Part shown: positions 10,362 through 62,309 of the stretch, one piece after another
Layout: each line of letters starts with the position of its first letter
Numbering within the stretch: the first letter of the stretch is position 1
DNA from: Methanobacteriota archaeon
Lineage (GTDB): Archaea; Thermoplasmatota; Thermoplasmata; RBG-16-68-12
DNA: 64,000 nt
Direction of reading: 5' to 3'
Assembly (NCBI GenBank): GCA_005878525.1
Contig: VBMB01000135.1
Coordinates: forward strand, 39 to 64,038
Made by a program: the position numbers and the translations under genes
Notes under the pieces: generated by a model
What the model was told of the DNA's origin: nothing
What the model saw: the letters and a program-made list of their open reading frames with translations, nothing else
Databases searched by the model: none

Positions 10362-10498
10362 AGCGGGGTGGGGTAGCCAGGATATCCCGTCGGGCTCATA
10401 CCCCGGGACTCCCAGGTCCCCGGTGAGACACCCGGAGATCGATGGTTCAAAAGGGCGGTGAGGAACGGCCTCAGGCCCGGAAAGTCCATCCCCCGCTA
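10362..10498 (+). tRNA. Initiator tRNA-Met (anticodon CAT) with two predicted introns: a canonical one at 37/38 (10401..10429) and a T-loop one at 59/60 (10452..10484)
   Basis: Spliced sequence is AGCGGGG-U-G-GGGU-AGCCAGGAUA-UCCC-G-UCGGG-CUCAUAA-CCCGG-AGAUC-GAUGG-UUCAAAU-CCAUC-CCCCGCU-A. It has an A1:U72 pair, three G:C pairs in the anticodon stem and a near-consensus archaeal initiator 5' half; all stems pair. CCA is not encoded. Confidence 0.6.
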
Positions 10499-10563
10499 TC
10501 GAGTTCCGACGTCGGCGGCGGTCTCTTCGTTGTGGCCATCGTGTCGATTTCGCAAAGTCCGAG

Positions 10564-10591
10564 AAAGTTAACCTCGTTTAAGGTTAACTTT
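10564..10591. promoter_or_regulatory. Perfect 11-bp inverted repeat AAAGTTAACCT-N6-AGGTTAACTTT about 95 bp upstream of KaiC-like gene 1; a near-identical copy sits upstream of the KaiC-like gene at 62186
   Basis: Read directly from the sequence. It is an AT-rich palindrome in a 65% GC background and recurs at 62288..62309. Confidence 0.5.
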
Positions 10592-10636
10592 CGGCTCTCT
10601 CCTGTGACTCATCTTGTGGCCTGATTCTCACGACGG

Positions 10637-10644
10637 AGCTTTTA
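10637..10644 (+). promoter_or_regulatory. Putative TATA box (TTTTATGC) for KaiC-like gene 1
   Basis: AT-rich octamer about 45 bp upstream of ATG 10686; the spacing fits an archaeal BRE/TATA element. Confidence 0.3.
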
Positions 10645-10685
10645 TGCATTATGGGCCGGGTGGTCCGGCGCTCGGCAGGCTTTCA

Positions 10686-11771
10686 ATGGATCGCGTCAAG
10701 ACGGGCGTCGTAGGTCTCGACACGATGCTGACCGGCGGCCTGCTGCCTGCGCGACCGTACGTCGTCTCGGGCCCGACCGGGAGCGGCAAGACGATTCTGG
10801 CCCTCCACTTCCTCCTCGAAGGGCTCCGACAGCAGGAACCGTGTCTTCTGGTCACCCTCGATGAGCCGCCGATCGAGGTCAAGGCGAACATGGCCACGTT
10901 CGGGTGGAACCTGGACCGTCTCAAGATCCTCGATGCGACCCCGGACATCCGCGCGCACAAACGCCAGCGGTCCGTGATCGACGTCGGCACGTCCCTCGAC
11001 GTGCGGGACATGGAGGACGTCACGGAGATCCGCCAGTCCTCCCAGATCCGCGCCCTCGAGGTCACCGTGCACAGCGTACAGAAGATGATCAAACAGGAAT
11101 TCTTGCATCACCTCGAGCGGACGAAGCAGCGATACAAGCGCGTCGTCATCGATTCGATGACCGCGCTGAAGATGTTCGCGATGCAAGGCCAGGACAGCCG
11201 AATCCTGATCCAATCGTTCGTCCGGTTCCTCGCGGAACTGGAGGCGACGACCCTCATCATCTCGGAACGCCTCAACAAGAAGATCCTCGAGACGGAGTTC
11301 TTCCTCGCACGCGGCGAGGTACGGCTCCACAAGTGGATCGACGGAAGTGTGATCCGCCGCGCGATTTCGATCGACAAGTTCCGCGGTTCCTCGTTCGACG
11401 ATCGGATGCATCCAATCTCGATCGGGGACAACGGAATGGTCGTCTACCTGGACGCCCCCGCGCAGACGCGGGTGTCGAGCCCCGCTCCGAAGCCGGGTGA
11501 ATCGCTCCTCGAGACCCGGCTCATCGACGAGGTCTCGAACGTGATTGAGTCGATCATGCGTCACATCGAAGACGCCCATCGACGCCAGGTCCCGATCCGG
11601 GACATCGAGGTGTCGTTGTCTCGAGCAATGCTCGCCTTCCAACGCCGGAACTATCAGAAGGCGATGAAGCTCGCCCTCGCGTGCGACGCGGAAGTCCGAG
11701 AGCGCCTCGCGCAGGCTCCGCCTCCGCCGCCGACCTCGCAGCTGCCGCGTCCGCCCCAGGTGATCCGCTGA
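10686..11771 (+). CDS. KaiC-like RecA-superfamily ATPase (single domain with C-terminal extension)
   Basis: N-terminal IKTG..GLD..L.GG motif (VKTGVVGLDTMLTGG) and Walker A GPTGSGKT. Start set at MDRVKTG; the ATG at 10644 is an alternative. Confidence 0.85.
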   Translation: MDRVKTGVVGLDTMLTGGLLPARPYVVSGPTGSGKTILALHFLLEGLRQQEPCLLVTLDEPPIEVKANMATFGWNLDRLKILDATPDIRAHKRQRSVIDVGTSLDVRDMEDVTEIRQSSQIRALEVTVHSVQKMIKQEFLHHLERTKQRYKRVVIDSMTALKMFAMQGQDSRILIQSFVRFLAELEATTLIISERLNKKILETEFFLARGEVRLHKWIDGSVIRRAISIDKFRGSSFDDRMHPISIGDNGMVVYLDAPAQTRVSSPAPKPGESLLETRLIDEVSNVIESIMRHIEDAHRRQVPIRDIEVSLSRAMLAFQRRNYQKAMKLALACDAEVRERLAQAPPPPPTSQLPRPPQVIR

Positions 11772-12550
11772 CCGCCGCGGCCAAGATCCGGACCGGCATC
11801 CCGGGTCTCGACAAGATGCTGCACGGCGGCTACGTCCCGGGACGGCCGTACATCGTCTCGGGTCCTCCGGGCGCCGGCAAGACGATCCTCGCGATGCAGT
11901 TCCTGCGGGAGGGCCTGGAAGGCGGGGAGCGATGCCTGTTCGTGGCCCTCGAAGAGCCCCCGAACGAGCTGAAGATCAACATGCGCGGATTCCGCTGGAA
12001 CCTGGACGACCTCGACGTCCTCGACGCGAACTCCGATATCCGACGGTTCGAGCCCACGCCGATCCTCGAGATCTCCACGGAGGAAGAGCCCGCGAAGATG
12101 CGAGCGATCGGGGAGCGGATCCGGAAGACACCGGACTTCGAGAGCAAAGAAGTCACGGTCCACTCGTTGCAGCAACTGCTGAAGAACCTGTTCCTGAAGA
12201 GAAACTACGAGCGCGTCGTGATCGATTCGATGACGGCCCTCAAATATTTCTGCATGCGCGAGTTCGAGGAGACCGTCACGACGCAGTCGTTCATGCGATA
12301 CCTCGCGGAGTCGAAGGTCACTTCGCTGCTCACCCTCGAGCTCCCGGAGGAAGGCGAAGTCCCTCCGGAGGCGTTCCTGGCGCGCGGGGAGCTCCGCCTC
12401 CACAAACTCCGGGACGAGACGGGCATCAAGCGCTTCCTGTCCGTCGAGAAGTACAAAGGCTCGTCCCACGACGAGTCCGTGTATCCGTTCGAGATCACGA
12501 ACGCCGGGATCGTGATCAACATGGCCCCGATGGCCGCGACGGCCCACTGA
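11681..12550 (+). CDS. KaiC-like RecA-superfamily ATPase, tandem paralog
   Basis: IRTGIPGLDKMLHGG, Walker A GPPGAGKT, Walker B VVIDS. Only a GTG at 11681 is available upstream of the conserved N-terminal motif, which gives a 91-bp overlap with the upstream paralog; the start is uncertain. Confidence 0.8.
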   Translation: MRRGSPRAPRAGSASAADLAAAASAPGDPLTAAAKIRTGIPGLDKMLHGGYVPGRPYIVSGPPGAGKTILAMQFLREGLEGGERCLFVALEEPPNELKINMRGFRWNLDDLDVLDANSDIRRFEPTPILEISTEEEPAKMRAIGERIRKTPDFESKEVTVHSLQQLLKNLFLKRNYERVVIDSMTALKYFCMREFEETVTTQSFMRYLAESKVTSLLTLELPEEGEVPPEAFLARGELRLHKLRDETGIKRFLSVEKYKGSSHDESVYPFEITNAGIVINMAPMAATAH

Positions 12551-12618
12551 AGCCCCTTTTCCGTGGCAGCCCTTCGGCGGATGTCAACGCGGCGTTTGTC
12601 AGACAGATGTATGACTAC

Positions 12619-12627
12619 TTTTAAATA
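12619..12627 (+). promoter_or_regulatory. TATA box TTTTAAATA upstream of ftsZ
   Basis: Canonical archaeal TATA about 55 bp upstream of the MKSLL ATG. Confidence 0.45.
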
Positions 12628-12679
12628 GGGCAAGATGGATTCGTCCGCCCGTCAGTCTCCATCGGGATGGGATGGCACA

Positions 12680-13816
12680 ATGAAATCACTTCTCAACGAA
12701 GCCCTGGCCCGGCACCAGGAAGCCGAGGCGAAGGAAGAGCGCGAGTCCGAGAAAGCCAAGGCCGTGGAAAAGAAGAAGAACGGCGACGACGAAGAGATCG
12801 AAAAGATTGTGGAGTCGATCAATGTCTCGATCAAGATCGTCGGCTGCGGCGGGGGCGGATCGAACACGATCAACCGATGCAGCGAGGCCGGGATCACGGG
12901 CGCGCAGCTGGCCGCCGTGAACACGGACGCCAAGCACCTGCTCTCCGTCCACGCGCCGAAGAAGATCCTCATCGGCAAGCGCCTCACGAAAGGCCTCGGT
13001 GCCGGAGCCCTCCCGGAGGTCGGCGAACAGGCCGCCCACGAGAACGAGGAAGAGATTCGAGACTTCCTCCGCGGTTCTCACGTCGTGTTCATCACCGCGG
13101 GCATGGGCGGCGGGACCGGGACCGGCTCCGCACAGTACGTCGCCCGCGTCGCGAAGGAGGAAGGCGCCCTCACGATGGGCGTCGTCACGATGCCCTTCAA
13201 GTCCGAAGGCCGCATCCGGATGGAGAACGCGGAGGCCGGCCTGGACAAGCTCCGCAAGTTCAGCGACACGACGATCGTCATCTACAACGACAAGCTCCTC
13301 GAGCTCGTGCCCCGACTGCCGATCAACGCCGCGTTCAAGGTCGCGGACGAAATCCTGATGCAGTCGATCAAAGGCATGACGGAGATCATCACGAAGCCCG
13401 GCCTCGTGAACCTCGACTACGCGGACCTCATGACGATCATGAAGGGCGGCGGGGTCGCGATGATCGGAATCGGCGAGAGCGAGGAAGAGCGGGACCGGAT
13501 CGACTACGCGATCAACGAGGCCCTGGAATCCCCGTTGCTCGGCGAGGTCGACCTGACCCACGCCCGCGGCGCCCTCGTGCGCGTCGTCGGCGGACCCGAC
13601 TTGACCGTGTCCGAGGCGGAGAAGGCCGCGGAGATTGTGGGCCAGAAGATCAACCCGCAGGCGCGGATCATCTGGGGTTGTTCCGTCGAGGACGACCTGC
13701 AGAACACGGTTCGCGTGCTCCTGGTGATCACGGGCGTCAAGTCGAAGTCGCTCCTCGGCAAGGACGTGTACACGGGCCTCGTCAAGACGTCCGCCGAAGT
13801 GGACGAAGTACACTGA
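12680..13816 (+). CDS. ftsZ: Cell division GTPase FtsZ
   Basis: Tubulin/FtsZ signature GGGTGTG and [11 protein letters not shown]. Start chosen at MKSLL (12680) because the in-frame ATG at 12635 lies only 8 bp downstream of the TATA box. Confidence 0.9.
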
Positions 13817-13868
13817 CCTCCTCCTCTTTTTACCCGAACCTTTTTCCATTTCTCCCCCATCGCCGAGC

Positions 13869-14198
13869 GTGAGCACGCACCGCCCGCGGTATCGATACAT
13901 CGCGTTCCGGGTTGACGGGTCACGGCCGTTCCGACGCGAAGAGGTGCTGGAGGCCCTGCGGACGACGTCGCCGCGACTCTGGCTCGTCGACTTCGCGGGG
14001 ACGTTGGGCCTCGTCCGGACCACCCATCTCGAGAAAGACGCCGCGATTCATGCGCTGAACGACATCGGTGCCATCGGCGGAGAAACGGTCCGCGTGACGA
14101 CGGTCGGCACATCGGGAACGATTCGCGCGGCGACTCGCAAATACTTGGACCGCGCGGACAGCGCTCGCCGAGAACACAAAAAGAACCCTTATAAGTGA
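13869..14198 (+). CDS. RNase P protein component Pop5 (Rnp2)
   Basis: 109 aa; RYRYIAFRV N-terminal motif typical of archaeal Pop5; conserved position at the head of the exosome/proteasome superoperon. Confidence 0.6.
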   Translation: MSTHRPRYRYIAFRVDGSRPFRREEVLEALRTTSPRLWLVDFAGTLGLVRTTHLEKDAAIHALNDIGAIGGETVRVTTVGTSGTIRAATRKYLDRADSARREHKKNPYK

Positions 14199-14228
14199 CC
14201 GCTTGATTAGCGGCCCGAGGTTTATCAT

Positions 14229-14954
14229 ATGCAGCCGGGCCAGATGGCGTACGACCGCGCGATTACGGTCTTCAGCCCAGACGGCCGCCTGTTCCAGGTG
14301 GAATACGCTCGCGTGGCGGTCACGCGGGGCAACACCACCGTGGGTCTGAAGTTCAAGAACGGCATCGTGCTGATGGCCGACAAGAAGATCGGATCGCGGC
14401 TCGTCGAAACGTCGTCGATCGAGAAGATCTTCCAGATCGACGAACACGTCGGGGCGGCGACATCCGGCCTCGTAGCCGATGCGCGGGTCCTCGTGGACTA
14501 TGCCCGGCTCGTCGCGCAGATCAACAAGGTCACGTACAGCGAGAAGATCGGGGTCGACCTCCTCGTGAAGCGGATTTGCGACTACAAACAGAACTACACC
14601 CAGTACGGCGGCGTGCGTCCGTTCGGGACGGCGCTCCTCGTCGCGGGCGTGGACGACCTCGGAACCCATCTGTTCGAGACGGACCCGAGCGGCGCCCTCG
14701 TGTCGTACAAGGCCGGGAGCATCGGTCAGGGACGCCAGGCGGTCATGGAACTCCTCGAGGAGAAGTACAAGGAGAACATGGCCCAGGACGACGCGATGAT
14801 CCTCGGCCTGCAGGGCCTCCAAAAGGCCGCGGAAGGCGAGAAGCTCGACGCCCGCGCGATCGAGGTCGGCCTGATCGTCGAGGGGGAGAAGTTCCGACGG
14901 CTCTCGGAGACCGAAGTCGGTCAGTATCTCACCCGGATCCCGACGGCGTCTTAG
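14229..14954 (+). CDS. psmA: Proteasome alpha subunit
   Basis: YDRAITVFSPDGRLFQVEYA N-terminal signature. Confidence 0.95.
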   Translation: MQPGQMAYDRAITVFSPDGRLFQVEYARVAVTRGNTTVGLKFKNGIVLMADKKIGSRLVETSSIEKIFQIDEHVGAATSGLVADARVLVDYARLVAQINKVTYSEKIGVDLLVKRICDYKQNYTQYGGVRPFGTALLVAGVDDLGTHLFETDPSGALVSYKAGSIGQGRQAVMELLEEKYKENMAQDDAMILGLQGLQKAAEGEKLDARAIEVGLIVEGEKFRRLSETEVGQYLTRIPTAS

Positions 14955-14966
14955 GCGAGCGAGGTC

Positions 14967-15707
14967 ATGCCTAAAGAGCTCCGATCGGACCGTCGCGACG
15001 ATATCTTCAAGGAATATGTGATTGCCCGCATCGAGAAGGCGGGCGAGAAGTTCGAGGTCCTCGTGAAGCCGGACGCGGTCCAGCGGATCCGGGACGGCAA
15101 AGAGGTCGATCTCCTTCGGGAGCTCGCGATCGACGAGATTTTCAAGGATGCGCACAAGGGCTCGAAAGCGTCCGAGGAGAAGATGATGGAATTCTTCGGG
15201 ACCACGGAGCCCCTCGCGGTCGCCAAGCAGATCGTCCAACGCGGCGAGATTCAGCTGACGACCGAGCAGCGGCGCCAGATGTTGGAGGCGAAGCACAAAC
15301 AGATTGTGCAGTACATCGCCGCGAATGCGATCAACCCCCAGACGGGGGCGCCCCATCCTCCGCAGCGGATCGAGAACGCGATGGAGGAGGCGAAGGTCCA
15401 CGTCGACCCGTTCAAGAGCATCGAGGAGCAGGTGAAGGAGGTCCTCGACGCCCTCCGGCCTCTCATCCCAATTCGCTTCGAGAAGGTTCGGATCGCGGTG
15501 AAGCTCAGCGCCGAGGACAGCGCGAAGGCCTACGGGGACATCAAGTCGTTCGGCACGATCGTCAAGGAAGAATGGTCTCCCACCGGAGCCTGGATCGGCG
15601 TGGTCGAGATGCCGGCCGGCTTGCAGACCGAGTTCCTGGAAAGGCTGAACGCGAAGACGAAAGGAAACGTCGAGACTCGGATCCTCAAGGCCGAGCAGCG
15701 CATTTGA
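14967..15707 (+). CDS. Ribosome maturation protein SBDS/Sdo1
   Basis: SBDS family N-terminal FYSH domain ([10 protein letters not shown]...) and the C-terminal domain. Confidence 0.9.
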
Positions 15708-15782
15708 GATTTGCAGACCGGCCATCCGATCCGGATCGCCGATTAACCGGAAGCCTCAAGTAGCCGCCTCGGTTTCGACGCG

Positions 15783-16502
15783 TTGCGTGAGAGAGAGATA
15801 CCAATGCAGAGCAGTGGGGCGCTCCGCCCGATTGTCATTCCGGGCGAAGCCGTCGGCGGCCCTGGGCTGAAACCCGGGCCTGGCACATACAGCGAAGGCG
15901 GACGTGTTTTCGCGGCACAACTGGGCATTCGGAACGAGCACGAGGGCCTCGTCAGCGTGATCCCGCTCAACGGGCGGTACATCCCGCAACGGGGCGACGC
16001 CGTCATCGGCGAGGTGGTCGACCAAGGCCCATCCCATTGGCTCGTCGATATCAACTCTCCGTATCCCGCTCCCCTCCACGCGACGGAATCGCCCTGGCGG
16101 GTCGAATTCGGCGACACCGCGCGGTACCTGAAGGTCGGCGACGTGATCATGTGTCATGTCCTGAGCGTCGACGAGATCAAGCGCGTCCAACTGACGATGC
16201 AGGAGCGCGAGGCCCGACGCCTGACCGGTGGCATGGTGATCGAGATCTCGCCCACCAAGGTCCCGCGGGTGATCGGCAAGCAAGGGAGCATGGTGTCTCT
16301 GATCATGGACCTGACCGGGTGTCGCATCTACGTGGGGCAGAACGGGCGGATCTGGCTGGACGGGGATGACCGCAGCGCCGCGATCGCGACGATGGCGATC
16401 CGCCTGATCGAGGAGCGGGCCCAGGCGGTCGGCCTGACGGAAGCCGTGCGCGAACTAATCGAGCGGGAGAAAGGACGAGGGCGAGGGCCGAGGCCCTCCT
16501 AA
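15783..16502 (+). CDS. rrp4: Exosome complex RNA-binding subunit Rrp4 (S1 + KH)
   Basis: S1 domain (GDAVIGEVVD...W.VDI) and KH domain (VIGKQGSMVSLIMDLTGCRIYVG). GTG start; the ATG at 15804 is an alternative. Confidence 0.9.
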   Translation: MREREIPMQSSGALRPIVIPGEAVGGPGLKPGPGTYSEGGRVFAAQLGIRNEHEGLVSVIPLNGRYIPQRGDAVIGEVVDQGPSHWLVDINSPYPAPLHATESPWRVEFGDTARYLKVGDVIMCHVLSVDEIKRVQLTMQEREARRLTGGMVIEISPTKVPRVIGKQGSMVSLIMDLTGCRIYVGQNGRIWLDGDDRSAAIATMAIRLIEERAQAVGLTEAVRELIEREKGRGRGPRPS

Positions 16503-29880: not shown

Positions 29881-30016
29881 TCGCGGCGGGTCCAAGAAGA
29901 GAGGCTCATTTAAACCATTCGCGGCCGGGGTCTTCCTCCCGTAGAGTGCGGACGGAACCGGTCCTGATTATCACCGCCTGCAAGTCTTGGCGAATAGGTG
30001 ATGGGAGAACACCGCG

Positions 30017-33500: not shown

Positions 33501-34049
33501 ATGGACCGGGAGATCCTGTCCGTCAAGACCCGGAAGGACCTGTATGACTTCGTCCGCAAGAATCCGGGTTTCCATCTTCGTGAGCTATCGCGAGCCCTGA
33601 ACCTGTCGATCACCCTCGCGGATTACCATCTCCGGTTCCTCGAGAAGCACGAGCTAATCACGTCCGCGATGGATGGGGAGTACAAACGATTCTATCCGCG
33701 ATCGACGCCGGGTCAGGCGGAGGTCCGCGCCGCCCTCACGGAGGCGGAGAAGCAGATCCTCGCGTTCCTGCGGCAGCCGGTGCCCCTGAAGGTGATCGAC
33801 TTCCTTATGGAACGGGAGGGGGCGACCCACAAGGAGATCCTCGAGCAGGTGCCCGTCTCGCCGTCGACCCTCTCGCATCACCTGAAGAAGATGCAGGCCG
33901 CGGGGATCGTCGAACATGCCGACCGGACCGAGCGCCAGTACCGCGTCGTCGACCCGAAGTCGGTCGCGCGCCTCATGACCGCGTACGAACTGGCGACGCC
34001 GGACCAGGTTGACACGTTCATTCGCGTGTGGGGCGAGTTCCGCTTGTGA
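33501..34049 (+). CDS. Winged-helix (ArsR/TrmB-like) transcriptional regulator with two wHTH domains
   Basis: Two HTH segments (LRELSRALNLSITLADYHLRFL and HKEILEQVPVSPSTLSHHLKKM). Confidence 0.7.
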   Translation: MDREILSVKTRKDLYDFVRKNPGFHLRELSRALNLSITLADYHLRFLEKHELITSAMDGEYKRFYPRSTPGQAEVRAALTEAEKQILAFLRQPVPLKVIDFLMEREGATHKEILEQVPVSPSTLSHHLKKMQAAGIVEHADRTERQYRVVDPKSVARLMTAYELATPDQVDTFIRVWGEFRL

Positions 34050-39420: not shown

Positions 39421-39948
39421 TTACGCGGTCGCCTCTGCCGGGAACCGCATCGCGAGGTCTTCGCCATGGGCCGTCGGGCGGTACACATACGGAGGCACGC
39501 CTCGTCGGACCGCCGGGCCGCGCTGCTTGGTGATCAGCTGCACGGCCATCAGGACCCGCAGGCTGTTGACCGTCGTGTACTCGGAGAGACCGAGCTCCTC
39601 GGTAACCTCGGTCACGCTCGCGTCCGGGTGGAGGTGCAGAAAGCGAAGGATCGTGACCGTGTTCCGGTCCAGGACCTCCGCGGTCTGCTTCTGTTCCGGC
39701 CGCGGCTCGAGCTCGAGCCGCTCGTAGACGCGCTTGCCTTGTTCGGAAGGTGAGACGACAACGTTCAGGAGCGCGGTCTTCTCGATCTCCAGCAAATGCT
39801 TCGCGACGGCCGCGGGAGCGATGCCCATCTGGGCCGCCAGCTCGGGGATCTTCGAATCCCGATTGCGGTACACCTTGTTCTCCACGACGATCGTGAGGAC
39901 CTCGCGCTGACGTTCCGTGAGGAGGCGAGACCAGTCGCTAGAGTGCAT
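39421..39948 (-). CDS. HTH-type transcriptional regulator
   Basis: wHTH segments; start set at MHSSDWS. Diverges from folD. Confidence 0.55.
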   Translation of the reverse strand: MHSSDWSRLLTERQREVLTIVVENKVYRNRDSKIPELAAQMGIAPAAVAKHLLEIEKTALLNVVVSPSEQGKRVYERLELEPRPEQKQTAEVLDRNTVTILRFLHLHPDASVTEVTEELGLSEYTTVNSLRVLMAVQLITKQRGPAVRRGVPPYVYRPTAHGEDLAMRFPAEATA

Positions 39949-49808: not shown

Positions 49809-52800
49809 TCATCGCCTCCGACGCGCGAGGACGAGCCCGACCCCGACGGCCGCGATCGCGCCGACGACGACGGCGATGAGCGGCAGGTTCAGCGGCGCCG
49901 ACGGCGTGATGTCGGGCCCGCTCACGGTCGCGCCAGGGGAAGCCAGGACCGGGAGTTGAAGGGTGAACGTCTTCGACGCCGAGACAGACATCGAGTCCTG
50001 CACCGTCACCGCGAGGGCGACAGACGCCCCGCTCGGCCCGCCGGTGGACTGGGCCCGTAGGCCCACCTTGACCGTGCTCGTGGCCTCGACGGTGAGGTTC
50101 GCGAGAGTCGCTCCGACCGCAGATCCTCCGCTGCGGACGAGGCTCACGGACCAGCCGAACGCCGCGAGGTCGTCGGGATTCGTGATCGCCAAGGTGACTG
50201 TCTCGCGCGCATTGCCGGAGTTCGTCACGAGGAGTGTGTAGTTCAGGATTCGCCCGTCGAAGACAGGCGCCGCGGTGTCGAGGGCGAGGCTCAGGCCGCG
50301 CACGCGCAGGATGTCCACCTGGACGTCGACGCTCCCGAGGTTCGTGCCGTCCGTCTCCGACGTCGCGACGATTTTGATGGTGCCGTGATCGACGAGCGCG
50401 TTCGCCGGGCTCTGGATCGTGACCTGGACGGAGGCGCTGCTCGCGGCGTTGCCGAAGCTCAGGGAGACCGAGCCCGGCGCGAACGTGAACTGCCAATCCC
50501 CCGGCTGCCCCGCGAAGGCGAAATTCTCGGCGACGTTCCCCGTGTTGCGTGCGACGATCGCATAGGACACGGAGTCGCCGGCCACGATCGTCCGGCGCTG
50601 GGCCGGATCCCACGTCAGCGTAGCGGACCGGCTGACGACCTTGGTGAGCGCGACGTTCGCAATCGTGTCGGCGCTGAGGACGACGGACAGCGTCGCGCGG
50701 TAGACGACCGGAAGGCCGTTCTCCGTCGCCGACGTCGACGCCGAGATCGTGTACACCCCCGCGGGGAGGAGCACTTGGAACGCCCCGCTCGCGTCCGAAG
50801 TCGTGTCGAGTTCCGCCCCGGACTGGATCGTGACGGGGATCGACACCGGTGCACCCGAGGGATTCCGGACGGTGCCGGACAAGAGGAATCCTTGCGCCAG
50901 GGGCAGGTCCCGCGCGAACGACGCCGCGTGGGGCACCGTGATGCGCGCGAGGAAGACGGAGCTTCCGAACGACCGCGTCACGTAGACGTCGTACGTTCCC
51001 GGTGCCAGGGGGACGGTATAGGAACCGCTCGAGTCCGAGGTCGCTTGGGCCGAGATCGCGCCGCCCCCGCGACCGGTGAGCGTGATGATTGCGGAGATCC
51101 CCGTGCCGGCGAGGGTCGCCATGCCCGAGACCGTCGTGTTGTCGAAGGTCCGCGTGACCGCCAGGTCCAGGCTCAACGACGTTTGGCCTGGGGTGACGGT
51201 CGCGGTGCCGGCGAAGGAATATCGATAGAAACGGGACACGCCGCCTTCCGTGGCGTTGTTCGTCCCCGTCAACGTCACAGTGTAGTTCCCCGGGACGAGG
51301 AACGAGGTGTATGCGCCGAAGGCATCCGTCGACACGGATAGCGAACCGCCCTCGTTGCGGACGAACGACACGGGCATGGGTCCGGGGACCGCGACGCCGT
51401 TGACGAGGGCCCTCCCGGAGACCGTCGTCGCCTTCGTGAGCGGGAAGCTGAGGTTCGTCGCGGACGGAATCGCCGCCATCGACATGAACGCATACTCATC
51501 GGCTCCGATCATCTCGCTTCCTGTGACGGCGTACGACCCGGGGATCAGGTAGACCTCGAATCCAGTCGCCGTCGCGTTCACCGCCCGGCGGTCCGGGCCA
51601 TCGAACGTGAGGGCCGCGGCCCGGGCCGTCCTGTTCAGCGTCAAGTTCCCGACGACGAGGTTCCGCACGACGATGTTGATGTCGTACGGCAGCGTGCCTT
51701 CGCCGACCGCCGCGACGATCCGGTCCGTGCCTTGGTTCTGGTACCGCATGGCCCGCGTCGACGAGACGTTCTCGTCCACGACGAGCGCGTACGTCCCCGG
51801 GACGAGGCCGAAACCGTAGCCGCCGTTCGAATCCGTCTGGGTCGCGCTGCCGACCGCGCCGTTCCCGAGGGGAACCGCGGTGACGGTCACCGGGTGGCTG
51901 AGGACCGCCGATCCGTTCACGAGGACGCTCCCTTGGACTTGGACGGGGACCGGGGTGAGGGCGATCGGCATCAGCGTACGGAGTTGAATCGGGGACGAGG
52001 ATCCGATGGGTCGGTCGGCAAACCCGGCCGCCGTCACGAGTCCTGAGTACGTCCGGTTGGCAAACAGCGGGATCCGGAACTCGCCGGTCCCGTTCGTCGT
52101 GAAGACGATGTGTGCGGCGCGGTCGTCCGTCAGGCCGACGCGAGCCCCGGCGATCGCCTCGCCCGGATTGACCCCGCTATTCCGGTTCACGTCGCGGTAG
52201 ACCGTCCATCCGACCGTTTCCGATGTGGCGAGGAGCGCGATGTTGAGGCGAGTCGTCCCCGCGAAGGTGACGCTCGCGAAGTAGGCGCCTGCCTGGTTGA
52301 ACGCCTCGAGGTCGTACGTCCCGACCGGGAGGAATGTGAAGTACCCTCCGGCCGTGTCGGTCTGGAGCCACACCTGGCCGGCCGCGTTCGCGAGGGCCAC
52401 CGTCGCCCGCGGATTCCGGACCGCGGGGTTCGCATCGCTCACGGTGCCGCTCAGCCGGACGCCTTGCACGAACATCGCGTCGAACGATGTCGTGCTCCCA
52501 CGAGCCACGACGACCCGACCCAACGCCGCGTACAAGAGATTCGACGCATAGAAGCGTCCGCTGACGAACCACTCCCCCGCCGGGAGTCGGATTGAGTACC
52601 GCGCGTTCGCATCGGACGTCGTCTGGCGGACCGTCCGCGGCTCCGATGCGGACTGGAAGCTCAGGGTCGCGAACGGCTGCGCCGTGCCGAACAACGTTGT
52701 GGTGCCGGAGACCGTCCCCACGGGCAGAAGCGTGATGTTCAGCGACTGGTCCGCATTCGCGGCGCGGATGCGCGTCGGGATCGACGCGAGGTCTCCATCC

Positions 52801-55800
52801 GTCGCCGTGAGCGTGTAGTTCCCCGCAAGGAGCGGACGCACTAGGAACGAGCCGTCTGCTGCCGAAGTGACCGGGATGATCGTGGAGTTCGTTTCATCGA
52901 GGAATTCCATCTGAGCCAACGGCTCGATCCCGCCAAGACTCGAGACGGTGAATCCGCGGACCGCTGTATACGGCACGGCGATCCCTTGGGTCGCGTCGGT
53001 CTGCGTGATCGTCAGGGTCGCGGCGGTCAACGTGCGTCCGTTCAACCCGATCGACACGCGATACGAGCCTTCGGGCAGACCCGCGACCGTGTAGGTCCCG
53101 TCGGTCGCCGACGTCGCGGAGCGGCTGTAGCCGAACAATGCATGCGTGAGCGTGATGGTGGCGCCGGGCGCGGAGATGTCCGCCGCCCCGAACGAGCCGT
53201 CTCGGTTCAGGTCGAAGAAGACGGTGCCTTGGGCGGTGTGTGACGCCACGTGGAAGTCCCGCGTGATCATCCAGTCGGGAACCCCGTCCCCGTTTGCGTC
53301 GGCGGGGGCACGGTTTGCTTGGTCGATCGTCACCGGGAGGGTCACGGACGCCAGGGACCGCGCGCCGACCAGGGTCGTCCGGGTCAAGTTGCCGATCGAC
53401 GCGGTGATCGTCACGTTCCCGAAGGGGACGATCGCGGTGTAATGGCCTTGCGCGTCGCTCTGCGTGACGTAGTGCGGCGTGCCGAGTTCGTCCGTCACCG
53501 TGACCCAGACGTGGGGGAGCGGCGTCGAGCCAGCATAGACGGTCCCGCTCACGACCGCGCCGTCGTAGTATCGCAGGAACACGACCCCGTTCGCGACCGT
53601 GGACTGCGTGCTCAGGTCGACGACTCCTTTGAGGGTCCCGGCCTGGATGGCGGACTGCATCCGCTGCGCTTGGTCGAAGTTCATCGCCCGCCACGCGGTC
53701 GTGTGGTTCGCCGGATCGGGGAACGGATTGTAGTACGCGGTCCGGTACACGACCCGCCAGTGGGTAAGGTTCCATGCGGGGACCGGCGGGTTGGCCTGAA
53801 GGGCCTGGCTGAAGCCCGGGACGCCGGTGTCGGTCGAATTGAGGTCCTTCGGCGAATAGCCGATGTAGGCCCGGTAGAACATCGAGTTGTAGAACGCGGC
53901 TTGGTACTGGATCGTCTGGCTCTGGATCTGGTCTCCTGGGGCCACGAACTGGATCGGGATGTTCGAGCCGCGGTTCGTCGTCGCGAGGATCTGGAAGAAT
54001 TCGAACGGCAGGACGCGGCCGTCCGGAAGGTTCAGGACGCGGTGGTCCGACAGCTTCGCGGGCGCATAGAAGATCCCCGTGTTCGAGGCGCTGATCGGGA
54101 ACAGCCGCGCGTCGACCGCGAAGTAGCCGATGTCCCAGCCCGTCGCGGCTCGGACGTCGTGGTACAACGAGACGATGCGGTCCTCGCTCATCCGGCGGGT
54201 GAGGAGGCTCGTCAGGAAAATGAACTGGGCGTTGAGCGGTTGGAGATCCGGCGCCCACAATCCGAACGTGACCGGGTCGGCGAGGACGACCGAGATGTAA
54301 TCCGGGGGTCGCGCGAAGACGCTCCGGATCGTCTCGACAGGAAGGCCCGCGTCCAGGAGGACCGCCTTCACCGCGGGCCGGAAGTCCCGATGGTGCGTGA
54401 CGAAGTCCCCTTCCAAGAGTCGAATCGTGAGGAGGGCGATCCCGGCCGTTTCGTTCTGCGCCGTGATGAACTGGCCGGCGATCGCCACGCCGTCCTGGAA
54501 GTTGTCTGCCACGGTCGGGTGGGCTCCGCGGTCGACGGCTTCGAAGCCATAGTCCCACCACGAGAGGTACGCCGGGCGGAGCTCCGGAGGCGTATTCGAA
54601 TCCTGGGTCGCGAACCACTGCCAAGCTGCCGGATAGTAGTCGGTCGGCTTGGGGACGCTGTAGCCAAACGCCCCGAAATAGAACGGCGACCCGCTGCTCG
54701 GACTATAGCCCGGGGACCGCAGGAACGAGGGCAGGAGATTCGCGACCTGCTGATCGTACTGGGTCTTGAGCTCGAAGGGGATCGAGGCGTCGACGGCCCA
54801 CCAGACGTTGGGGAGGACGACCAGGAACACGATTCCGAGGACCACGAGGACGTGACGCGGCTTGAGCGATTTTCGGACCGCATTCCGCCAGCTGCCGGCC
54901 GCGAGCGAACGGTAGGTGCGCCGCATCGTCGTGAAGTCTGCGCGGACGAGGACCTGATCGATCGCGTACCCCGCGCTGATCGCGAACGCGGGCGAGGCGT
55001 TGAAGATGAACCGCGCGGCCGTGATCGCCATGAAGATCGCGGCGAAGGCCCAGACGACGACGAGGCTGTACGCGGGCTCCCGGCGCCGCGGGATCTGCCA
55101 GAGCAGGTACGCGACCGCGAGGAGGCTCATGCCGAACGTGAACAGGCCGAAGGACAGGATCATCTGCGACATGCCGGGGGACTGGTCCTCCGCGATGGTC
55201 GTGACGACCTTCGTCTGGACAAAGTATCCCGCGCCGGTGAAGAACGCGCTCGCCAGCGTCGGGTTGACGAGGACGCCGATCCCGAGGCCGACGGCTCCGG
55301 CGACCAGGGTGCTCGGGATCACGAGCGTCCACGGGTAGTCCCGGGTGACCGTGAAGGCGAGGCCGAGCACGAACGCCGCGAAGAACAGGTAGGCTGGCAC
55401 GTCGAACCACACGCGGATCTGCGCGCGGACGAAGTACCACTGAAAGGCAAGGGCGAGGGGGGTCGCGAGGGCGAGGGTGAACAGGATCCACGTCCCCATC
55501 GTGTCGTCGTTCCGGAAGCGGGCGAGGAACAGCTCGACCGCGAACCAGACGATCAGGATCACGCTGACATAGGCCCAGCCTTGCCAAGCGAGGGCGATGA
55601 CCGCGACGCACAGCCCGGCGAGGAGTGCGTACAGGACGCTGTTCCGGTTCTCCCGGAAAAAGCCGCGCAGGCCCGACGTGATCGAATCCCGTCGAAACCA
55701 ATTCTCGACCCATCGCTTGCGGTTCATCGTCTTCAGCGCGCGGAGGAAGAAATAGAACGTCGAGACGACGAAGAACAGCGTGAAGGCGTCGTGGTCCGCA

Positions 55801-56312
55801 TCCGTCGAGGCGCTCCGCTGGAGATGCCCGACACTGATCGCGAGCAACAGCGCGGCGACGAGCCCGGCCCGCCGGCCGAACGCCTCCTTGGCGAGGGCGT
55901 ACGTCGGGAAGACCGTCAGGGCGCCGAAGAGGCCCGTGCTCAGCAAGAACGTGAACATGACCGCCTTCCAGGCGTCCCCGAACAACGGCGCGAAGAGCCG
56001 ACCGACGAGGAGGGAGAACCACGGGAAGAGCGGCGGTCGCGGATTCGGCAGGGTGAACGGATAGCTCAGCATCGGGTCCGTGCCCAGGTCCTTGCCGGTC
56101 TGGAAGGAATAGCATAAGGCGCGGTGCCAGTAGTACGAGTCCGAGCCGCCGGACACGGGCAGCGTGTAGATCGTGTCGCAGTTCACGTTCGGTTGGTTGA
56201 AGGCGAGGCCGGCGACGAAGTAGACGCGGAGGAACAGGGCGACGCCGAAGATCAACACGAGGACCGCGGCGGTCCGCCAGTGCGTGCGGAGCCAGCCTTT
56301 CCCATCGTCCAA
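49809..56312 (-). CDS. aglB: Oligosaccharyltransferase AglB/STT3 fused to an approximately 1300-aa sequon-rich beta-repeat surface region with C-terminal TM anchor plus RRRR
   Basis: 13 TM N-terminal domain; the WWDYG motif is present; this is followed by a long Thr/Ser/Gly/Val-rich repeat region with dozens of N-x-S/T sites; it ends with IAVVVGAIAAVGVGLVLARRRR. Confidence 0.8.
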   Translation of the reverse strand: MDDGKGWLRTHWRTAAVLVLIFGVALFLRVYFVAGLAFNQPNVNCDTIYTLPVSGGSDSYYWHRALCYSFQTGKDLGTDPMLSYPFTLPNPRPPLFPWFSLLVGRLFAPLFGDAWKAVMFTFLLSTGLFGALTVFPTYALAKEAFGRRAGLVAALLLAISVGHLQRSASTDADHDAFTLFFVVSTFYFFLRALKTMNRKRWVENWFRRDSITSGLRGFFRENRNSVLYALLAGLCVAVIALAWQGWAYVSVILIVWFAVELFLARFRNDDTMGTWILFTLALATPLALAFQWYFVRAQIRVWFDVPAYLFFAAFVLGLAFTVTRDYPWTLVIPSTLVAGAVGLGIGVLVNPTLASAFFTGAGYFVQTKVVTTIAEDQSPGMSQMILSFGLFTFGMSLLAVAYLLWQIPRRREPAYSLVVVWAFAAIFMAITAARFIFNASPAFAISAGYAIDQVLVRADFTTMRRTYRSLAAGSWRNAVRKSLKPRHVLVVLGIVFLVVLPNVWWAVDASIPFELKTQYDQQVANLLPSFLRSPGYSPSSGSPFYFGAFGYSVPKPTDYYPAAWQWFATQDSNTPPELRPAYLSWWDYGFEAVDRGAHPTVADNFQDGVAIAGQFITAQNETAGIALLTIRLLEGDFVTHHRDFRPAVKAVLLDAGLPVETIRSVFARPPDYISVVLADPVTFGLWAPDLQPLNAQFIFLTSLLTRRMSEDRIVSLYHDVRAATGWDIGYFAVDARLFPISASNTGIFYAPAKLSDHRVLNLPDGRVLPFEFFQILATTNRGSNIPIQFVAPGDQIQSQTIQYQAAFYNSMFYRAYIGYSPKDLNSTDTGVPGFSQALQANPPVPAWNLTHWRVVYRTAYYNPFPDPANHTTAWRAMNFDQAQRMQSAIQAGTLKGVVDLSTQSTVANGVVFLRYYDGAVVSGTVYAGSTPLPHVWVTVTDELGTPHYVTQSDAQGHYTAIVPFGNVTITASIGNLTRTTLVGARSLASVTLPVTIDQANRAPADANGDGVPDWMITRDFHVASHTAQGTVFFDLNRDGSFGAADISAPGATITLTHALFGYSRSATSATDGTYTVAGLPEGSYRVSIGLNGRTLTAATLTITQTDATQGIAVPYTAVRGFTVSSLGGIEPLAQMEFLDETNSTIIPVTSAADGSFLVRPLLAGNYTLTATDGDLASIPTRIRAANADQSLNITLLPVGTVSGTTTLFGTAQPFATLSFQSASEPRTVRQTTSDANARYSIRLPAGEWFVSGRFYASNLLYAALGRVVVARGSTTSFDAMFVQGVRLSGTVSDANPAVRNPRATVALANAAGQVWLQTDTAGGYFTFLPVGTYDLEAFNQAGAYFASVTFAGTTRLNIALLATSETVGWTVYRDVNRNSGVNPGEAIAGARVGLTDDRAAHIVFTTNGTGEFRIPLFANRTYSGLVTAAGFADRPIGSSSPIQLRTLMPIALTPVPVQVQGSVLVNGSAVLSHPVTVTAVPLGNGAVGSATQTDSNGGYGFGLVPGTYALVVDENVSSTRAMRYQNQGTDRIVAAVGEGTLPYDINIVVRNLVVGNLTLNRTARAAALTFDGPDRRAVNATATGFEVYLIPGSYAVTGSEMIGADEYAFMSMAAIPSATNLSFPLTKATTVSGRALVNGVAVPGPMPVSFVRNEGGSLSVSTDAFGAYTSFLVPGNYTVTLTGTNNATEGGVSRFYRYSFAGTATVTPGQTSLSLDLAVTRTFDNTTVSGMATLAGTGISAIITLTGRGGGAISAQATSDSSGSYTVPLAPGTYDVYVTRSFGSSVFLARITVPHAASFARDLPLAQGFLLSGTVRNPSGAPVSIPVTIQSGAELDTTSDASGAFQVLLPAGVYTISASTSATENGLPVVYRATLSVVLSADTIANVALTKVVSRSATLTWDPAQRRTIVAGDSVSYAIVARNTGNVAENFAFAGQPGDWQFTFAPGSVSLSFGNAASSASVQVTIQSPANALVDHGTIKIVATSETDGTNLGSVDVQVDILRVRGLSLALDTAAPVFDGRILNYTLLVTNSGNARETVTLAITNPDDLAAFGWSVSLVRSGGSAVGATLANLTVEATSTVKVGLRAQSTGGPSGASVALAVTVQDSMSVSASKTFTLQLPVLASPGATVSGPDITPSAPLNLPLIAVVVGAIAAVGVGLVLARRRR

Positions 56313-59580: not shown

Positions 59581-60045
59581 CTACGTCAGGGCGTGTGCGT
59601 ACAGGATTCCCTGGGAGTCGGCAATCTGCACCGCGTACCCGCTCGGGTACGTGGTCGTGCTGATCAAGACCCGGTCTCCGACGACGATGGTCGTGCCTCC
59701 GGTCCCGACGAACTGGGCCCTGTTGGTGTTCCACGAGGCCGACGTCAGGGATGCGAAGGCGGTGGGGCTGAGCGACGTCAAACCTCCCGAGGTGGTGATC
59801 GTCAGCTTAACGGCCGACGTCGTCAGGCCACTCGGTGTCGTCGTGATCAACAGCGTCCAGTTCGTTCCATCGCCGGATCTCCCGATATTGACACCCATCA
59901 CACGAGGTCCTTGACCCGTGGGCGTCAGCAGGCCGGATACCATCACGTACAGCACCGCGGCCAGCACGACCGTAATCGCGACCATCAGGATGGTCGCAAT
60001 CACGGGCGACACGGCTGCCTCATCCTTTCGGATGATGCTCTTCAT
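59581..60045 (-). CDS. Archaeal type IV pilin-like protein with class III (prepilin) signal peptide, copy A
   Basis: MKSIIRKDEAAVSPVIATILMVAITVVLAAVLYV is a class III signal with a FlaK/PibD-type cleavage context; Thr/Ser/Gly-rich mature part. The listed ORF 59581..60363 has a spurious 5' extension. Confidence 0.7.
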   Translation of the reverse strand: MKSIIRKDEAAVSPVIATILMVAITVVLAAVLYVMVSGLLTPTGQGPRVMGVNIGRSGDGTNWTLLITTTPSGLTTSAVKLTITTSGGLTSLSPTAFASLTSASWNTNRAQFVGTGGTTIVVGDRVLISTTTYPSGYAVQIADSQGILYAHALT

Positions 60046-60768
60046 GGTTCTGTCCTCCTGCGGCTTGCGCCGCCATCTCGGCACGGGGGAACCGACGCTC
60101 TTAAACGTGTCGTGGTTAATATTCGAAGTTGAGAACGAACGGATCGGGTACGCGCGGGAAATGGAAAGGAAAGAGAAAAGGGAAGAAGGTTGGGGGCTGG
60201 ATGCTGAGCCTAGCCCAGGGCGTGTGCGTACAGGATTCCCTGGGAGTCGGCGATCTGCACGCCGTACCCGCTCGGGTACGTGGTCGTGCTGATCAGGAGC
60301 CGGTCTCCGACGACGACGGTCGTGCCTCCGGTCCCGACGAACTGGGCCCTGTTGGCGTTCCACGAGGCCGACGTCAAAGACGAGAGGGCGATCGGGTTGA
60401 GCGCCGTCAGGCCGCCGGTTGTCGTGATCGTCAGCTTAACGGCCGACGTCGTCAGGCCACTCGGTGTCGTCGTGATCAACAGCGTCCAGTTCGTTCCGTC
60501 TCCAGACGTGCCGATATTGACACCCATCACACGAGGTCCTTGACCCGTGGGCGTCAGCAGGCCGGATACCATCACGTACAGCACCGCGGCCAGCACGACC
60601 GTAATCGCGACCATCAGGATGGTCGCAATCACAGGCGACACGGCTGCCTCATCCTTTCGGATGATGCTCTTCATGGTTCTGTCCTCCTGCGGCTTGCGCC
60701 GCCATCTCGGCACGGGGGAACCGACGCTCTTAAACGTGTCGTGGTTAATATTCGAAGTTGAGAACGAG
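59587..60768. repeat. Tandem direct duplication (2 x about 552 bp, 78-bp spacer) covering the pilin gene plus about 95 bp of its upstream region
   Basis: 59587..60138 versus 60216..60768 are about 95% identical, including the non-coding upstream segment. Confidence 0.7.
60210..60674 (-). CDS. Archaeal type IV pilin-like protein, copy B (about 93% identical to copy A)
   Basis: Same class III signal peptide; about 10 substitutions in the mature part. Confidence 0.7.
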   Translation of the reverse strand: MKSIIRKDEAAVSPVIATILMVAITVVLAAVLYVMVSGLLTPTGQGPRVMGVNIGTSGDGTNWTLLITTTPSGLTTSAVKLTITTTGGLTALNPIALSSLTSASWNANRAQFVGTGGTTVVVGDRLLISTTTYPSGYGVQIADSQGILYAHALG

Positions 60769-60850
60769 TTCATAAGAGCTAGCGCCGCCAGAGGAAAGTG
60801 CCTCACTGCGGAGGGCGTCCGACGCGGGCGAGACTGACGCCATCGGCGGC

Positions 60851-61426
60851 TCAGACCCCGAGTTCGAGGGCTTCATCGGACACGAGCACGAGCATGTTCC
60901 GGATCTCCTCCGTCTCGTATTCCTGCATCGAGATGATGACGGTGTAGGCGCCGCGGGCGCGCAGGTTGTTCACCAGGATGTGGAGGAACTCGCTCAGGAT
61001 CTTCGTGTTGTTATGGATCGCGAGGCTGTTGATCGAGTCCAGCACGACGAGGGCGTTCCGGTCCGGGTTCTTGCGGAGGAGGAACTCGACCTTCAGCATG
61101 ATGTTCTCGAGCATCGTCGGACTCTCGACGACGATCGAGTGGGGATGGCGCTTCGCCTGGGACATCATGATCTGCGTGATGCAGTCGACGAACCAGATGT
61201 GCTCCACCGGGATCTCGAGGGCCTCCATCGCGTTCAGGATGCTCTGGCTCGGGATCGTCGACGTCACGTAGACGACCTCGAGGTCCTTCTTCGTCGCGAA
61301 CCGGTCGATCAAGCCTTGGATCGCGTCGAAATATTGATCCGCTTTCAGGTGAAGCGCGACGGCGGACGCGACCGGCAAGGCGGAAAGCTTCTCCGAGACC
61401 TCGGCCGGGATGCTCTGTTCAGCCAC
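60851..61426 (-). CDS. RecA/KaiC-fold protein lacking a P-loop (degenerate ATPase-like partner)
   Basis: VVYVTSTIPSQSI occupies the Walker A position without GxxGxGKT; a Walker B-like ALVVLDSINSLA is retained. Overlaps the upstream KaiC-like gene by 8 nt. Confidence 0.5.
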   Translation of the reverse strand: MAEQSIPAEVSEKLSALPVASAVALHLKADQYFDAIQGLIDRFATKKDLEVVYVTSTIPSQSILNAMEALEIPVEHIWFVDCITQIMMSQAKRHPHSIVVESPTMLENIMLKVEFLLRKNPDRNALVVLDSINSLAIHNNTKILSEFLHILVNNLRARGAYTVIISMQEYETEEIRNMLVLVSDEALELGV

Positions 61427-62201
61427 TTCCGGTCACGCTCCCGCCTTTCAGCAACGGCACGAGCAACACGCCGGACGTCGTGAGGTCGAGGACGTACTTC
61501 GCTCGACTGTGGGTCGTGCCCCGCATCTTGACGACCTGCAACGTCCGGAGGAGATCGCCGCGACGCTCGAGGTTCCCCGTCACGATCACGCCGTCGGCGA
61601 GGGCTTCCTCGACCCCCCAGCGGGAATAGCCTTCCTCCGTGGAACGGATCTCCGACACGAGAAGCGAGGTGCATCCCTTCGCGCTCAGGACCGTCCCGAG
61701 GCGGAGCAGGAAGTCCCGGATCCGCTCCTGGTCCTTGATCCGGTAGCAGACGGACGTGACGGAATCGAGGACGAGCCGGCGGATCTTCTGCTCTTCAACG
61801 ATGGAGGCGATGCGGCTGGCGAGGAGGCGGGCCTCCTTGAAGTCCATGTCTTCCTTATCGATGCCGAGCTCCTCGTAGATCTTCGGCATGTCGACGAACT
61901 GGAGCTTCCCCTGCTTCGCGAGACGGTCGTCGAAGAAGTCGAACGGGATGACGTTCTTGAGGAGCTTGTCGGTCGGCTCCGTGACGCTCAGGTAGAGGCT
62001 GTTCTCGCCCTCGAGCGCGCCGCGGATCAGGAACTCGATACAGATCGAGGTCTTCCCGGTGCCGACGGAACCGGAAATCAGGACGGTGTTCCCGCGCGGG
62101 ATGCCTCCATTCAGAATATGATCGATCGCATCGATGCCGGTGACGCATCGCTCACGCTCGCCGTCGTCGCGCTCCATCGTGGGCATCGATTCAGGCAACA
62201 A
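61419..62201 (-). CDS. KaiC-like RecA-superfamily ATPase
   Basis: VTGIDAIDHILNGG, Walker A GSVGTGKTS, Walker B LVLDS. The start could be any of the three Met in the first nine codons (62201, 62186, 62177). Confidence 0.8.
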   Translation of the reverse strand: MLPESMPTMERDDGERERCVTGIDAIDHILNGGIPRGNTVLISGSVGTGKTSICIEFLIRGALEGENSLYLSVTEPTDKLLKNVIPFDFFDDRLAKQGKLQFVDMPKIYEELGIDKEDMDFKEARLLASRIASIVEEQKIRRLVLDSVTSVCYRIKDQERIRDFLLRLGTVLSAKGCTSLLVSEIRSTEEGYSRWGVEEALADGVIVTGNLERRGDLLRTLQVVKMRGTTHSRAKYVLDLTTSGVLLVPLLKGGSVTGSG

Positions 62202-62287
62202 ACTTGGGGCGCGCTATAAGAGATGAACGCGCTGATTATCAGGTCTGAAAGCAGGGCCGGGCTCACGGATTCGGGAGCGACTGAGTG

Positions 62288-62309
62288 GTCAACCTTGTTT
62301 AAGGTTAAC
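62288..62309. promoter_or_regulatory. Inverted repeat GTCAACCTT-GTTT-AAGGTTAAC about 100 bp upstream of the KaiC-like gene; near-identical to the 10564..10591 palindrome
   Basis: 20 of 22 positions are shared with the site upstream of KaiC-like gene 1. Confidence 0.5.

Follow-up and report, generated by a model that had tools for sequence, protein, structure and literature searches.

A 22-bp palindrome that lies upstream of two KaiC-like operons in the window (the whole 64-kb stretch of DNA analysed here) is probably the operator of a small, autoregulated regulator with many targets, and the KaiC1 and KaiC2 operons would be two clade-specific targets among them. The earlier note, made from the window alone, had taken the palindrome for the operator of a dimeric factor dedicated to the KaiC-like systems. 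A conserved dyad in the promoter region was borne out by our analysis; its dedication to KaiC was not.

Two palindromes and the KaiC-like operons

Site 1 (10563..10592, no strand assigned) has perfect 12-bp arms and a 6-nt spacer when the flanking G/C pair is included; it reads AAAGTTAACCT-CGTTTA-AGGTTAACTTT at 10564-10591 and contains the core 22-mer GTTAACCTCGTTTAAGGTTAAC at 10567-10588. Site 2 (GTCAACCTTGTTTAAGGTTAAC, 62288..62309, also without a strand) has one arm mismatch. Both sequences were verified in the window at the positions reported earlier, and their 22-mers are identical at 20 of 22 positions. Both are intergenic: site 1 is flanked by an SCP2-like gene and the KaiC-like gene, and site 2 begins 3 nt past the stop codon of an upstream F420-oxidoreductase-like gene. 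With up to three mismatches allowed, they were the sole matches in the window, and the third KaiC locus, near 45916, has no copy, as had been noted before. The window has a GC content of 64.1%, and none of 100 dinucleotide-preserving shuffles of it contained a match, in agreement with the earlier view that a chance recurrence is improbable. Neither Rfam nor ARAGORN gave a match in the window. Judged by its homologues, the DNA comes from an uncultured Thermoplasmata archaeon of high GC content whose kind is known from metagenomes of soil.

The distance to the KaiC1 start codon (ATG, 10686) is 97 nt from the end of site 1 and 108.5 nt from its centre; for site 2 and the KaiC2 start codon (ATG, 62186) the corresponding distances are 101 and 112.5 nt. 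The spacings are similar. ATG 62186 is the KaiC2 start that orthologues of 255 aa support, and the TTG at 62201 given previously was probably misassigned.

Operon 1 (10686..13816, + strand, assigned from Pfam matches) consists of a KaiC-like ATPase gene (10686-11771), a second KaiC-like gene (11816-12550) and ftsZ (from 12680 or 12635 to 13816), and its synteny is kept in all orthologous contigs. The KaiC-like ATPase pair is fixed directly upstream of FtsZ clade-wide, within a conserved string of KaiC-like, KaiC-like, FtsZ, Rpp14, proteasome alpha, SBDS and then exosome genes (10686-16502 in the window; contigs L001-L013). In L010 a phage-integrase gene follows SBDS and is itself followed by unannotated genes, including a PCNA-like one (15120-16322), which looks like an integrated element in this conserved superoperon. 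Operon 2 (59581..62186, - strand, assigned from Pfam matches and from relatives with the same gene order) contains a KaiC-like ATPase gene (61419-62186), a degenerate KaiC-like gene (60851-61426) and two tandem archaeal type IV pilin genes (60210-60773 and 59581-60084). Downstream of KaiC2, a direct repeat of about 40 bp (TCTTAAACGTGTCGTGGTTAATATTCGAAGTTGAGAACGA) occurs at 60099-60140 and 60728-60777, at or just upstream of the 5' ends of the two pilin genes. A gene at 49809-56354 (- strand), conserved near the KaiC2-pilin locus in relatives, encodes a 2181-aa STT3/AglB-like oligosaccharyltransferase fused to many CarboxypepD_reg and SdrD_B-like repeats.

Each of the two operons has a proximal promoter of its own. 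For KaiC1 the TATA-like element TTTTATGC (10640..10647, + strand; GTTTATCG in relatives) lies in conserved alignment columns, with its GTTTAT about 40 nt upstream of the ATG, and was present in all orthologues examined. For KaiC2 the element is CTTATAG (62214..62221, - strand; CATATAG in relatives), about 30 nt upstream of the ATG and likewise kept in every orthologue examined. The palindromes, found in one subclade, are 65-80 bp upstream of the proximal TATA in each KaiC operon; with these separate conserved TATA boxes present, the palindrome spacer was rejected as the KaiC TATA box. A further box, distinct from the palindrome, precedes each TATA. The KaiC1 box (CTGATTCTCAC, 10621..10631, + strand; written GGCCTGATTCTCAC in the intergenic alignment) is about 10 nt upstream of it and is kept in orthologues including those without a palindrome, with L010, L011 and L013 having near-matches to CTGATWMTCAS. 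The KaiC2 box (CTGATAATCAG, 62232..62242, - strand), a small dyad itself, is about 13 nt upstream; it is exactly CTGATACTCAG in orthologues L014-19, with or without the palindrome, and is present only as the variant TTGATACTCGT in L020-22. CTGATWMTCAS has three sites in the window compared with 0.13 expected, the third being at 29964-29974, at the 5' end of the MetRS gene, and it is nearly missing elsewhere in 1.4 Mb of related DNA. As a lead to KaiC-specific control CTGATWMTCAS is preferable to the palindrome, and it may be a promoter element specific to KaiC.

Contigs carrying KaiC1 orthologues of 78-96% identity keep the gene order and an intergenic region of 370-400 bp. Across eight of these intergenic regions the arms TTAACCT and AGGTTAAC are invariant while the DNA on both sides has diverged, which indicates that the dyad is under purifying selection; the spacer varies among CGTTTA, TGTTTA, TGTTCA and TGTTTG. 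The other conserved elements of this region are a tRNA gene with its promoter, the box and the TATA-like element, and all three are kept in the KaiC1 orthologues at 73, 69 and 65% identity (L010, L011 and L013), which have no palindrome. At KaiC2 the palindrome is present in L018, L019, L028, L061 and L101 (G01_MAG_00007 is among the carriers) and missing from the promoters of L014-17 (89% identity) and L020-22 (78%). In contigs with a palindrome-less KaiC2, the palindrome is instead found before a Dph6-like PF01902 gene. Retention at orthologous KaiC promoters, on which the earlier proposal had been made to depend, was thus seen only at the closer KaiC1 orthologues and at KaiC2 of some relatives.

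The tRNA gene upstream of site 1 is an initiator-type tRNA-Met(CAT) gene (10362-10498, + strand) with two introns, one at the canonical position 37/38 (10401-10429) and one in the T-loop (10452-10484). It was missed by ARAGORN and by the Rfam gathering threshold, but once spliced by hand to 75 nt the sequence was recognised by aragorn as a tRNA-Met. All orthologous contigs keep the gene together with its promoter, GATAGGTTTATCC.

Distribution and nature of the palindrome

One genome per species (GTDB) was scanned with the pattern GTYAACCTYRTTYRAGGTTRAC, which fixed most positions and therefore biased the sample to near-perfect sites; about four matches were expected by chance. Among the matches listed there were at least 117 stretches, 113 of them in 40 MAGs of Thermoplasmata type (labelled Thermoplasmata, Thermoplasmatota, 'Methanobacteriota' or Methanomassiliicoccales) and four in unrelated bacteria, the latter about as many as chance would give. 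One MAG had at least 11 stretches, and one of its contigs, 170 kb long, alone carried five or six sites, which suggests tens of palindromes per genome. No viral contig carried the motif. A literature search for the motif string returned no paper, and a topical search returned nothing relevant.

Using a codon-model gene caller, 127 of 140 sites (about 91%) were intergenic. Divergent intergenic regions held 37 sites (38%, compared with 27% of the available intergenic length), tandem regions 57 (58% compared with 57%) and convergent regions 4 (4% compared with 15.5%), so that the sites prefer regions that contain promoters. The genes whose 5' end faces a palindrome fall into about 48 clusters with no shared theme, and KaiC1 and KaiC2 are two of these. 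Others encode MogA-like, MutY-like and MoeB/ThiF-rhodanese proteins, Ku, fibrillarin, a RecJ/GAN-like DHH protein, a PKD protein, ribosomal proteins S13 and L3, transporters, and enzymes including enoyl-CoA hydratase, pterin dehydratase, a glycosyltransferase, acetyl-CoA synthetase, isocitrate dehydrogenase (IDH), ribose-5-phosphate isomerase, triosephosphate isomerase, anthranilate synthase and creatininase. Distances from site to start codon range broadly, from 15 to more than 100 nt, with no single geometry. The flanks are unrelated between loci, which indicates that the palindrome is not part of a longer repeat.

Some MAGs of Methanomassiliicoccales type have tandem palindromes with a period of 58-60 bp (L037 735-814, L081 6095-6174, L129 1-52 and L122 984-1125). 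In E29_bin30 the 36-nt stretch between copies is conserved between loci, pointing to a larger repeated module there. Variant sites GTTAACCATGTTTATGGTTAAC, in which the arms change symmetrically from CCT/AGG to CCA/TGG, were seen in L063 (1679), L075 (2775), L139 (3480) and L060 (2418), 62 bp from canonical sites and upstream of a PKD-domain protein gene.

The lineage-wide 22-bp consensus is GTTAACCTT-RWWY-AAGGTTAAC. A relaxed scan of 1.1 Mb gave many sites with zero to three mismatches, very few with four or five and none with six, and the mismatches were mostly at a few tolerated positions; the palindrome is sharply defined to an unusual degree. Its asymmetric centre, RTTY, points toward the downstream gene in nine gene clusters and away from it in ten, and both orientations were found within single orthologous clusters. 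At the T/C variant of arm position 3, a C.A mismatch on the sense strand is about as frequent as a G.U pair. The dyad is not followed by a T tract. In several target groups the palindrome is separated from the gene by a BRE/TATA-like sequence, cGAACCTTTAGA. Regions upstream of genes are enriched in TATA-like hexamers, and AT-rich hexamers are most frequent between -30 and -26 relative to the start codon; the lineage is accordingly largely leaderless, and most sites lie upstream of the transcript. The random orientation, the absence of a G.U preference, the missing T tract and the position of most sites outside the transcript favour a symmetric DNA-binding site over an RNA hairpin. These comparisons support a conserved dyad of the kind bound by a dimeric regulator, situated in promoter-containing intergenic DNA.

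Several other identities were rejected. The two sites are not attL and attR of an element integrated beside the tRNA gene, as the 52 kb between them is conserved core genome. A Xer/dif-type recombination core (11-6-11), of which a replicon should have one copy close to its terminus, was discarded given two sites in 52 kb and at least 11 stretches in one MAG. A CRISPR array was dismissed because there are only two or three copies and the 36-nt 'spacers' are similar among L037, L081 and L129; most sites also occur singly, and cas genes were not observed.

A small protein as candidate binder

Loci with multiple palindromes (L055, L060, L122, L032 and L129) all contain a small unannotated ORF, with one palindrome about 38 nt before its start and another overlapping or following its stop. 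The protein, typically 75-80 aa long, has the pattern MQIGCG-x4-x-I/V-x-G-x2-YLYFWxYE...G...Q...Y.G, after which comes a helical tail. A profile search returned 169 relatives, all of 70-90 residues; those named are all 'hypothetical protein, Thermoplasmata' and lack a Pfam domain, and the relatives named come from Thermoplasmata only. In 1.84 billion proteins searched exhaustively with an HMM there were only 124 representatives. The protein had no match in Pfam (E up to 10), NCBIfam, PHROGs or PDB sequences, where hits to antibody light chains were discarded as spurious. No homologue was found in the window by HMM in all six frames. The wHTH proteins that had been put forward as candidate binders (33501-34049 and 39421-39948) are genuine HTH proteins, and we found nothing linking them to the palindrome.

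We collected 80 metagenome loci by the small protein alone. In 49 of these a palindrome (up to four mismatches) ends 14-15 nt before the start codon, so that it spans -36 to -15 with its centre near -25.5, where the TATA box of a leaderless gene is expected. Since the genes are mostly leaderless, the palindrome at the small gene's own promoter would lie on the TATA box. The remaining loci belong to other subfamilies with different 22-bp dyads at the same position, and these dyads track residues 7-10 of the protein. Proteins with VTTK, LTTK or QTVK at these residues have GTTAACCTT..AAGGTTAAC at their own promoter, those with VYxH have GTTATAGTTAAATAACTATAAC / GTTATAGTTA, and YCVK is found with GTTATCGTTAAATAACGATAAC; the dyads are GGTATCCTTACGTAAGGATACC / GGTATCCTTA for YRVM and LRVM (xRVM), GTTGGCCTTAAGTAAGGCCAAC / GTTGGCCTTA for IRVK and GTTATACCTACTTAGGGATAAC / GTTATACCTA for LATK. 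When the operator types were compared, eight of nine arm pairs showed double changes that keep the dyad (27 cells compared with 6.6 in shuffles, with none of 500 shuffles as high). Several subfamilies have a second cognate dyad just past the stop codon, and in the subfamily of L043 and L119 an AACC-type palindrome follows the stop codon and a different dyad is at the promoter, which tells against the pairing proposed here. A palindrome at the protein's own promoter together with this co-variation is the pattern that would be expected of an autoregulated dimeric DNA-binding protein and its operator, and it ties the window palindromes to the xTTK/QTVK group. Most likely, then, GTTAACCTTGTTTAAGGTTAAC is the putative operator of an xTTK/QTVK-type protein.

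AlphaFold2, given a 56-sequence alignment, returned a confident beta3-alpha model of the small protein (pLDDT 93), with antiparallel strands at 5-12, 15-26 and 29-39 and a long helix at 43-74. The specificity-correlated residues 7-10 are on the first modelled strand. A Foldseek search of the model against PDB and BFVD gave nothing significant. The model has the three-stranded sheet and helix of the AP2/integrase-type fold, and the protein may act like a beta-sheet DNA reader of that kind; membership of the family is not established.

Proposed mechanism, alternatives and comparison with known systems

In the mechanism that we propose, the binder would be a homodimer of the small 75-80 aa beta3-alpha Thermoplasmata protein carrying xTTK or QTVK at residues 7-10. 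The palindrome before its own gene has its centre some 25 nt from the start, on the TATA box, and binding there would compete with TBP/TFB and so repress the gene; from within their promoter regions, further operator copies would serve tens of functionally unrelated genes in each genome. In the subclade of the window the KaiC-KaiC-FtsZ and KaiC-KaiC-pilin operons would each have gained one copy, joined to an older, independently conserved proximal promoter. As the KaiC palindromes are too far upstream to occlude the proximal TATA, the bound protein could modulate the proximal KaiC promoter from upstream; alternatively, the TATA-like centre of the palindrome may provide a second start that can be switched. 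In this account the binding itself, the formation of a dimer and the direction in which the KaiC promoters are regulated are inferred.

A fuller account is possible, which we offer only tentatively. The small proteins may constitute an undescribed family of tiny beta-sheet regulators whose subfamilies read specific 22-bp palindromes through residues 7-10, matching operator positions 4-7, with the operator doubling as a symmetric TATA. The AACC-type member would then switch tens of potentially bidirectional promoters, among them those of KaiC-KaiC-FtsZ cell-division, pilus, ribosomal and DNA-repair operons, by competing with TBP.

Four other explanations were weighed against the multi-target operator. 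A KaiC-dedicated operator of one dimeric regulator co-regulating the KaiC-like loci would account for two copies at similar distances (97 and 101 nt) before two KaiC-like operons in one window, and for the retention of the site at KaiC1 (78-96% identity) and at KaiC2 of some relatives. KaiC-like genes are very common in the genome anyway, however, the window's third KaiC locus has no copy, the palindrome is missing at KaiC1 of L010, L011 and L013 and at KaiC2 of L014-17 and L020-22, and at least 113 further sites face about 45 other, functionally incoherent gene families. The earlier note had itself named occurrence at many unrelated genomic positions as evidence against its proposal, and this is what the scan of species genomes found, with about 48 target clusters and the further copies in 40 Thermoplasmata MAGs among the matches listed. 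We regard dedication to KaiC as very improbable. A hairpin acting in RNA, be it as terminator, as processing site or as part of a 5' UTR, is in our judgement more improbable still: the 8-9 bp stem, the existence of symmetric arm changes and the position of site 2, 3 nt past a stop codon and with an arm mismatch that is a G.U pair on the sense strand, could be read in this way, but no T tract trails the palindromes, their orientation and the choice of G.U or C.A are random relative to the transcribed strand, many sites are upstream of a TATA box and hence outside the mRNA, sites are depleted between convergent genes, and there is no Rfam match.

The other two alternatives are both unlikely. The palindrome could be a symmetric core promoter, a TATA with inverted BRE-like arms read by TBP and TFB that gives bidirectional starts with no dedicated regulator. 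Its centre (CTTAAAC, GTTTAAG) does resemble the enriched TATA-like hexamers of the lineage, the sites are promoter-associated, and at the small gene the palindrome coincides exactly with the TATA position and nothing else close by is AT-rich. Against this, near-invariance over 22 bp is far beyond what BRE and TATA need, ordinary promoters of the same genomes look different, KaiC1, KaiC2 and MogA-type targets have their own TATA between palindrome and gene, and the arms change symmetrically between small-protein subfamilies, which general factors would not require. A selfish or mobile repeat of REP/MITE type without a regulatory role, which may have been dispersed along with the small gene beside it, would fit the near-identical dispersed copies, their patchy presence at orthologous loci and in both orientations at the same promoter across species, the tandem arrays with a 58-60 bp period and the bracketing of the small gene by palindromes in several subfamilies. 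Yet the dyad is unchanged at orthologous positions despite flank divergence, a sign of purifying selection; there are no conserved flanks past it, it is depleted between convergent genes, where REP-like elements are usually found, and it is not on viral contigs. An unsystematic look noticed no transposase or RAYT-like gene adjoining any site, and the modelled 75-aa beta3-alpha protein does not appear to be a recombinase. For the regulon of a transcription factor, near-invariance over 22 bp without a degenerate tail is out of the ordinary, and copy-and-paste spread would be consistent with it too; both orientations at orthologous promoters, with patchy presence, could reflect repeated insertion. 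A copy-and-paste history thus retains some plausibility, given sites that are near-invariant, patchy and orientation-flipping.

An autoregulated small regulator with palindromic operators, which is our preferred reading, is a familiar kind of system. Lrs14, LrpA, MDR1 and Phr are archaeal autoregulated repressors with operators that overlap BRE/TATA. As with these, the putative palindromic operator described here lies on the TATA position of the candidate regulator's own, probably leaderless, gene, and further putative operators lie at other promoters; unlike them, the candidate is predicted to be beta3-alpha rather than HTH, wHTH or RHH and has no Pfam, NCBIfam or PDB sequence match, and the operator is 22 bp long and almost invariant with a TATA-like centre. 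The AP2/ERF and integrase-type domains, including the DNA-recognition region of PI-SceI, share with the model a three-stranded antiparallel sheet on a helix, and the residues of the candidate that co-vary with the operator are on the first strand. The candidate differs from them in having no sequence-profile match, a long helix at the C-terminus and a target that is a palindrome and not an asymmetric sequence, and the structural likeness is modest for a 75-residue fold. CIRCE/HrcA and the LexA boxes are highly conserved global operators, and like them the palindrome is a long dyad nearly identical over many promoters and species. Its targets, in contrast, have no common function, the site is confined to one archaeal class, and the subfamilies into which the candidate regulator family has split differ in their operators. 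REP/BIME elements are also short dispersed intergenic palindromes, sometimes in tandem, but the sites described here have a promoter bias and not a 3'-end bias, number tens and not hundreds of copies and are conserved at orthologous positions, and no RAYT was noticed in our unsystematic look. The protein family, the operator code and the TATA-centred dyad appear not to have been described before, as we found no paper with the motif and no curated family.

The tempting inference of a KaiC-specific regulatory circuit is removed by these results. In its place is a concrete system consisting of a sharply defined putative operator, a candidate regulator of about 77 residues, natural specificity variants and a list of target promoters. 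It occurs in a poorly known archaeal class and, if confirmed, would represent a new DNA-binding protein family in archaeal transcription; the motif could be used to read regulons straight from uncultured Thermoplasmata genomes.

Two further observations were made. At several loci (L189, L203, L146 and L169) an xTTK-type gene is followed by MoaD/ThiS-like and MoaE genes and is divergent from an HflX-like GTPase gene, and MogA/MoaB-like and MoeB/ThiF-rhodanese genes are among the palindrome targets, which hints at a link between the regulator and molybdenum cofactor or sulfur-carrier metabolism. The sequence GTTAAC (an HpaI site) occurs three times in the 64 kb, every time within one of the two palindromes, compared with about seven occurrences estimated from base composition; it may be avoided outside the operator, and a restriction system or selection against spurious half-sites are examples of what could cause this.
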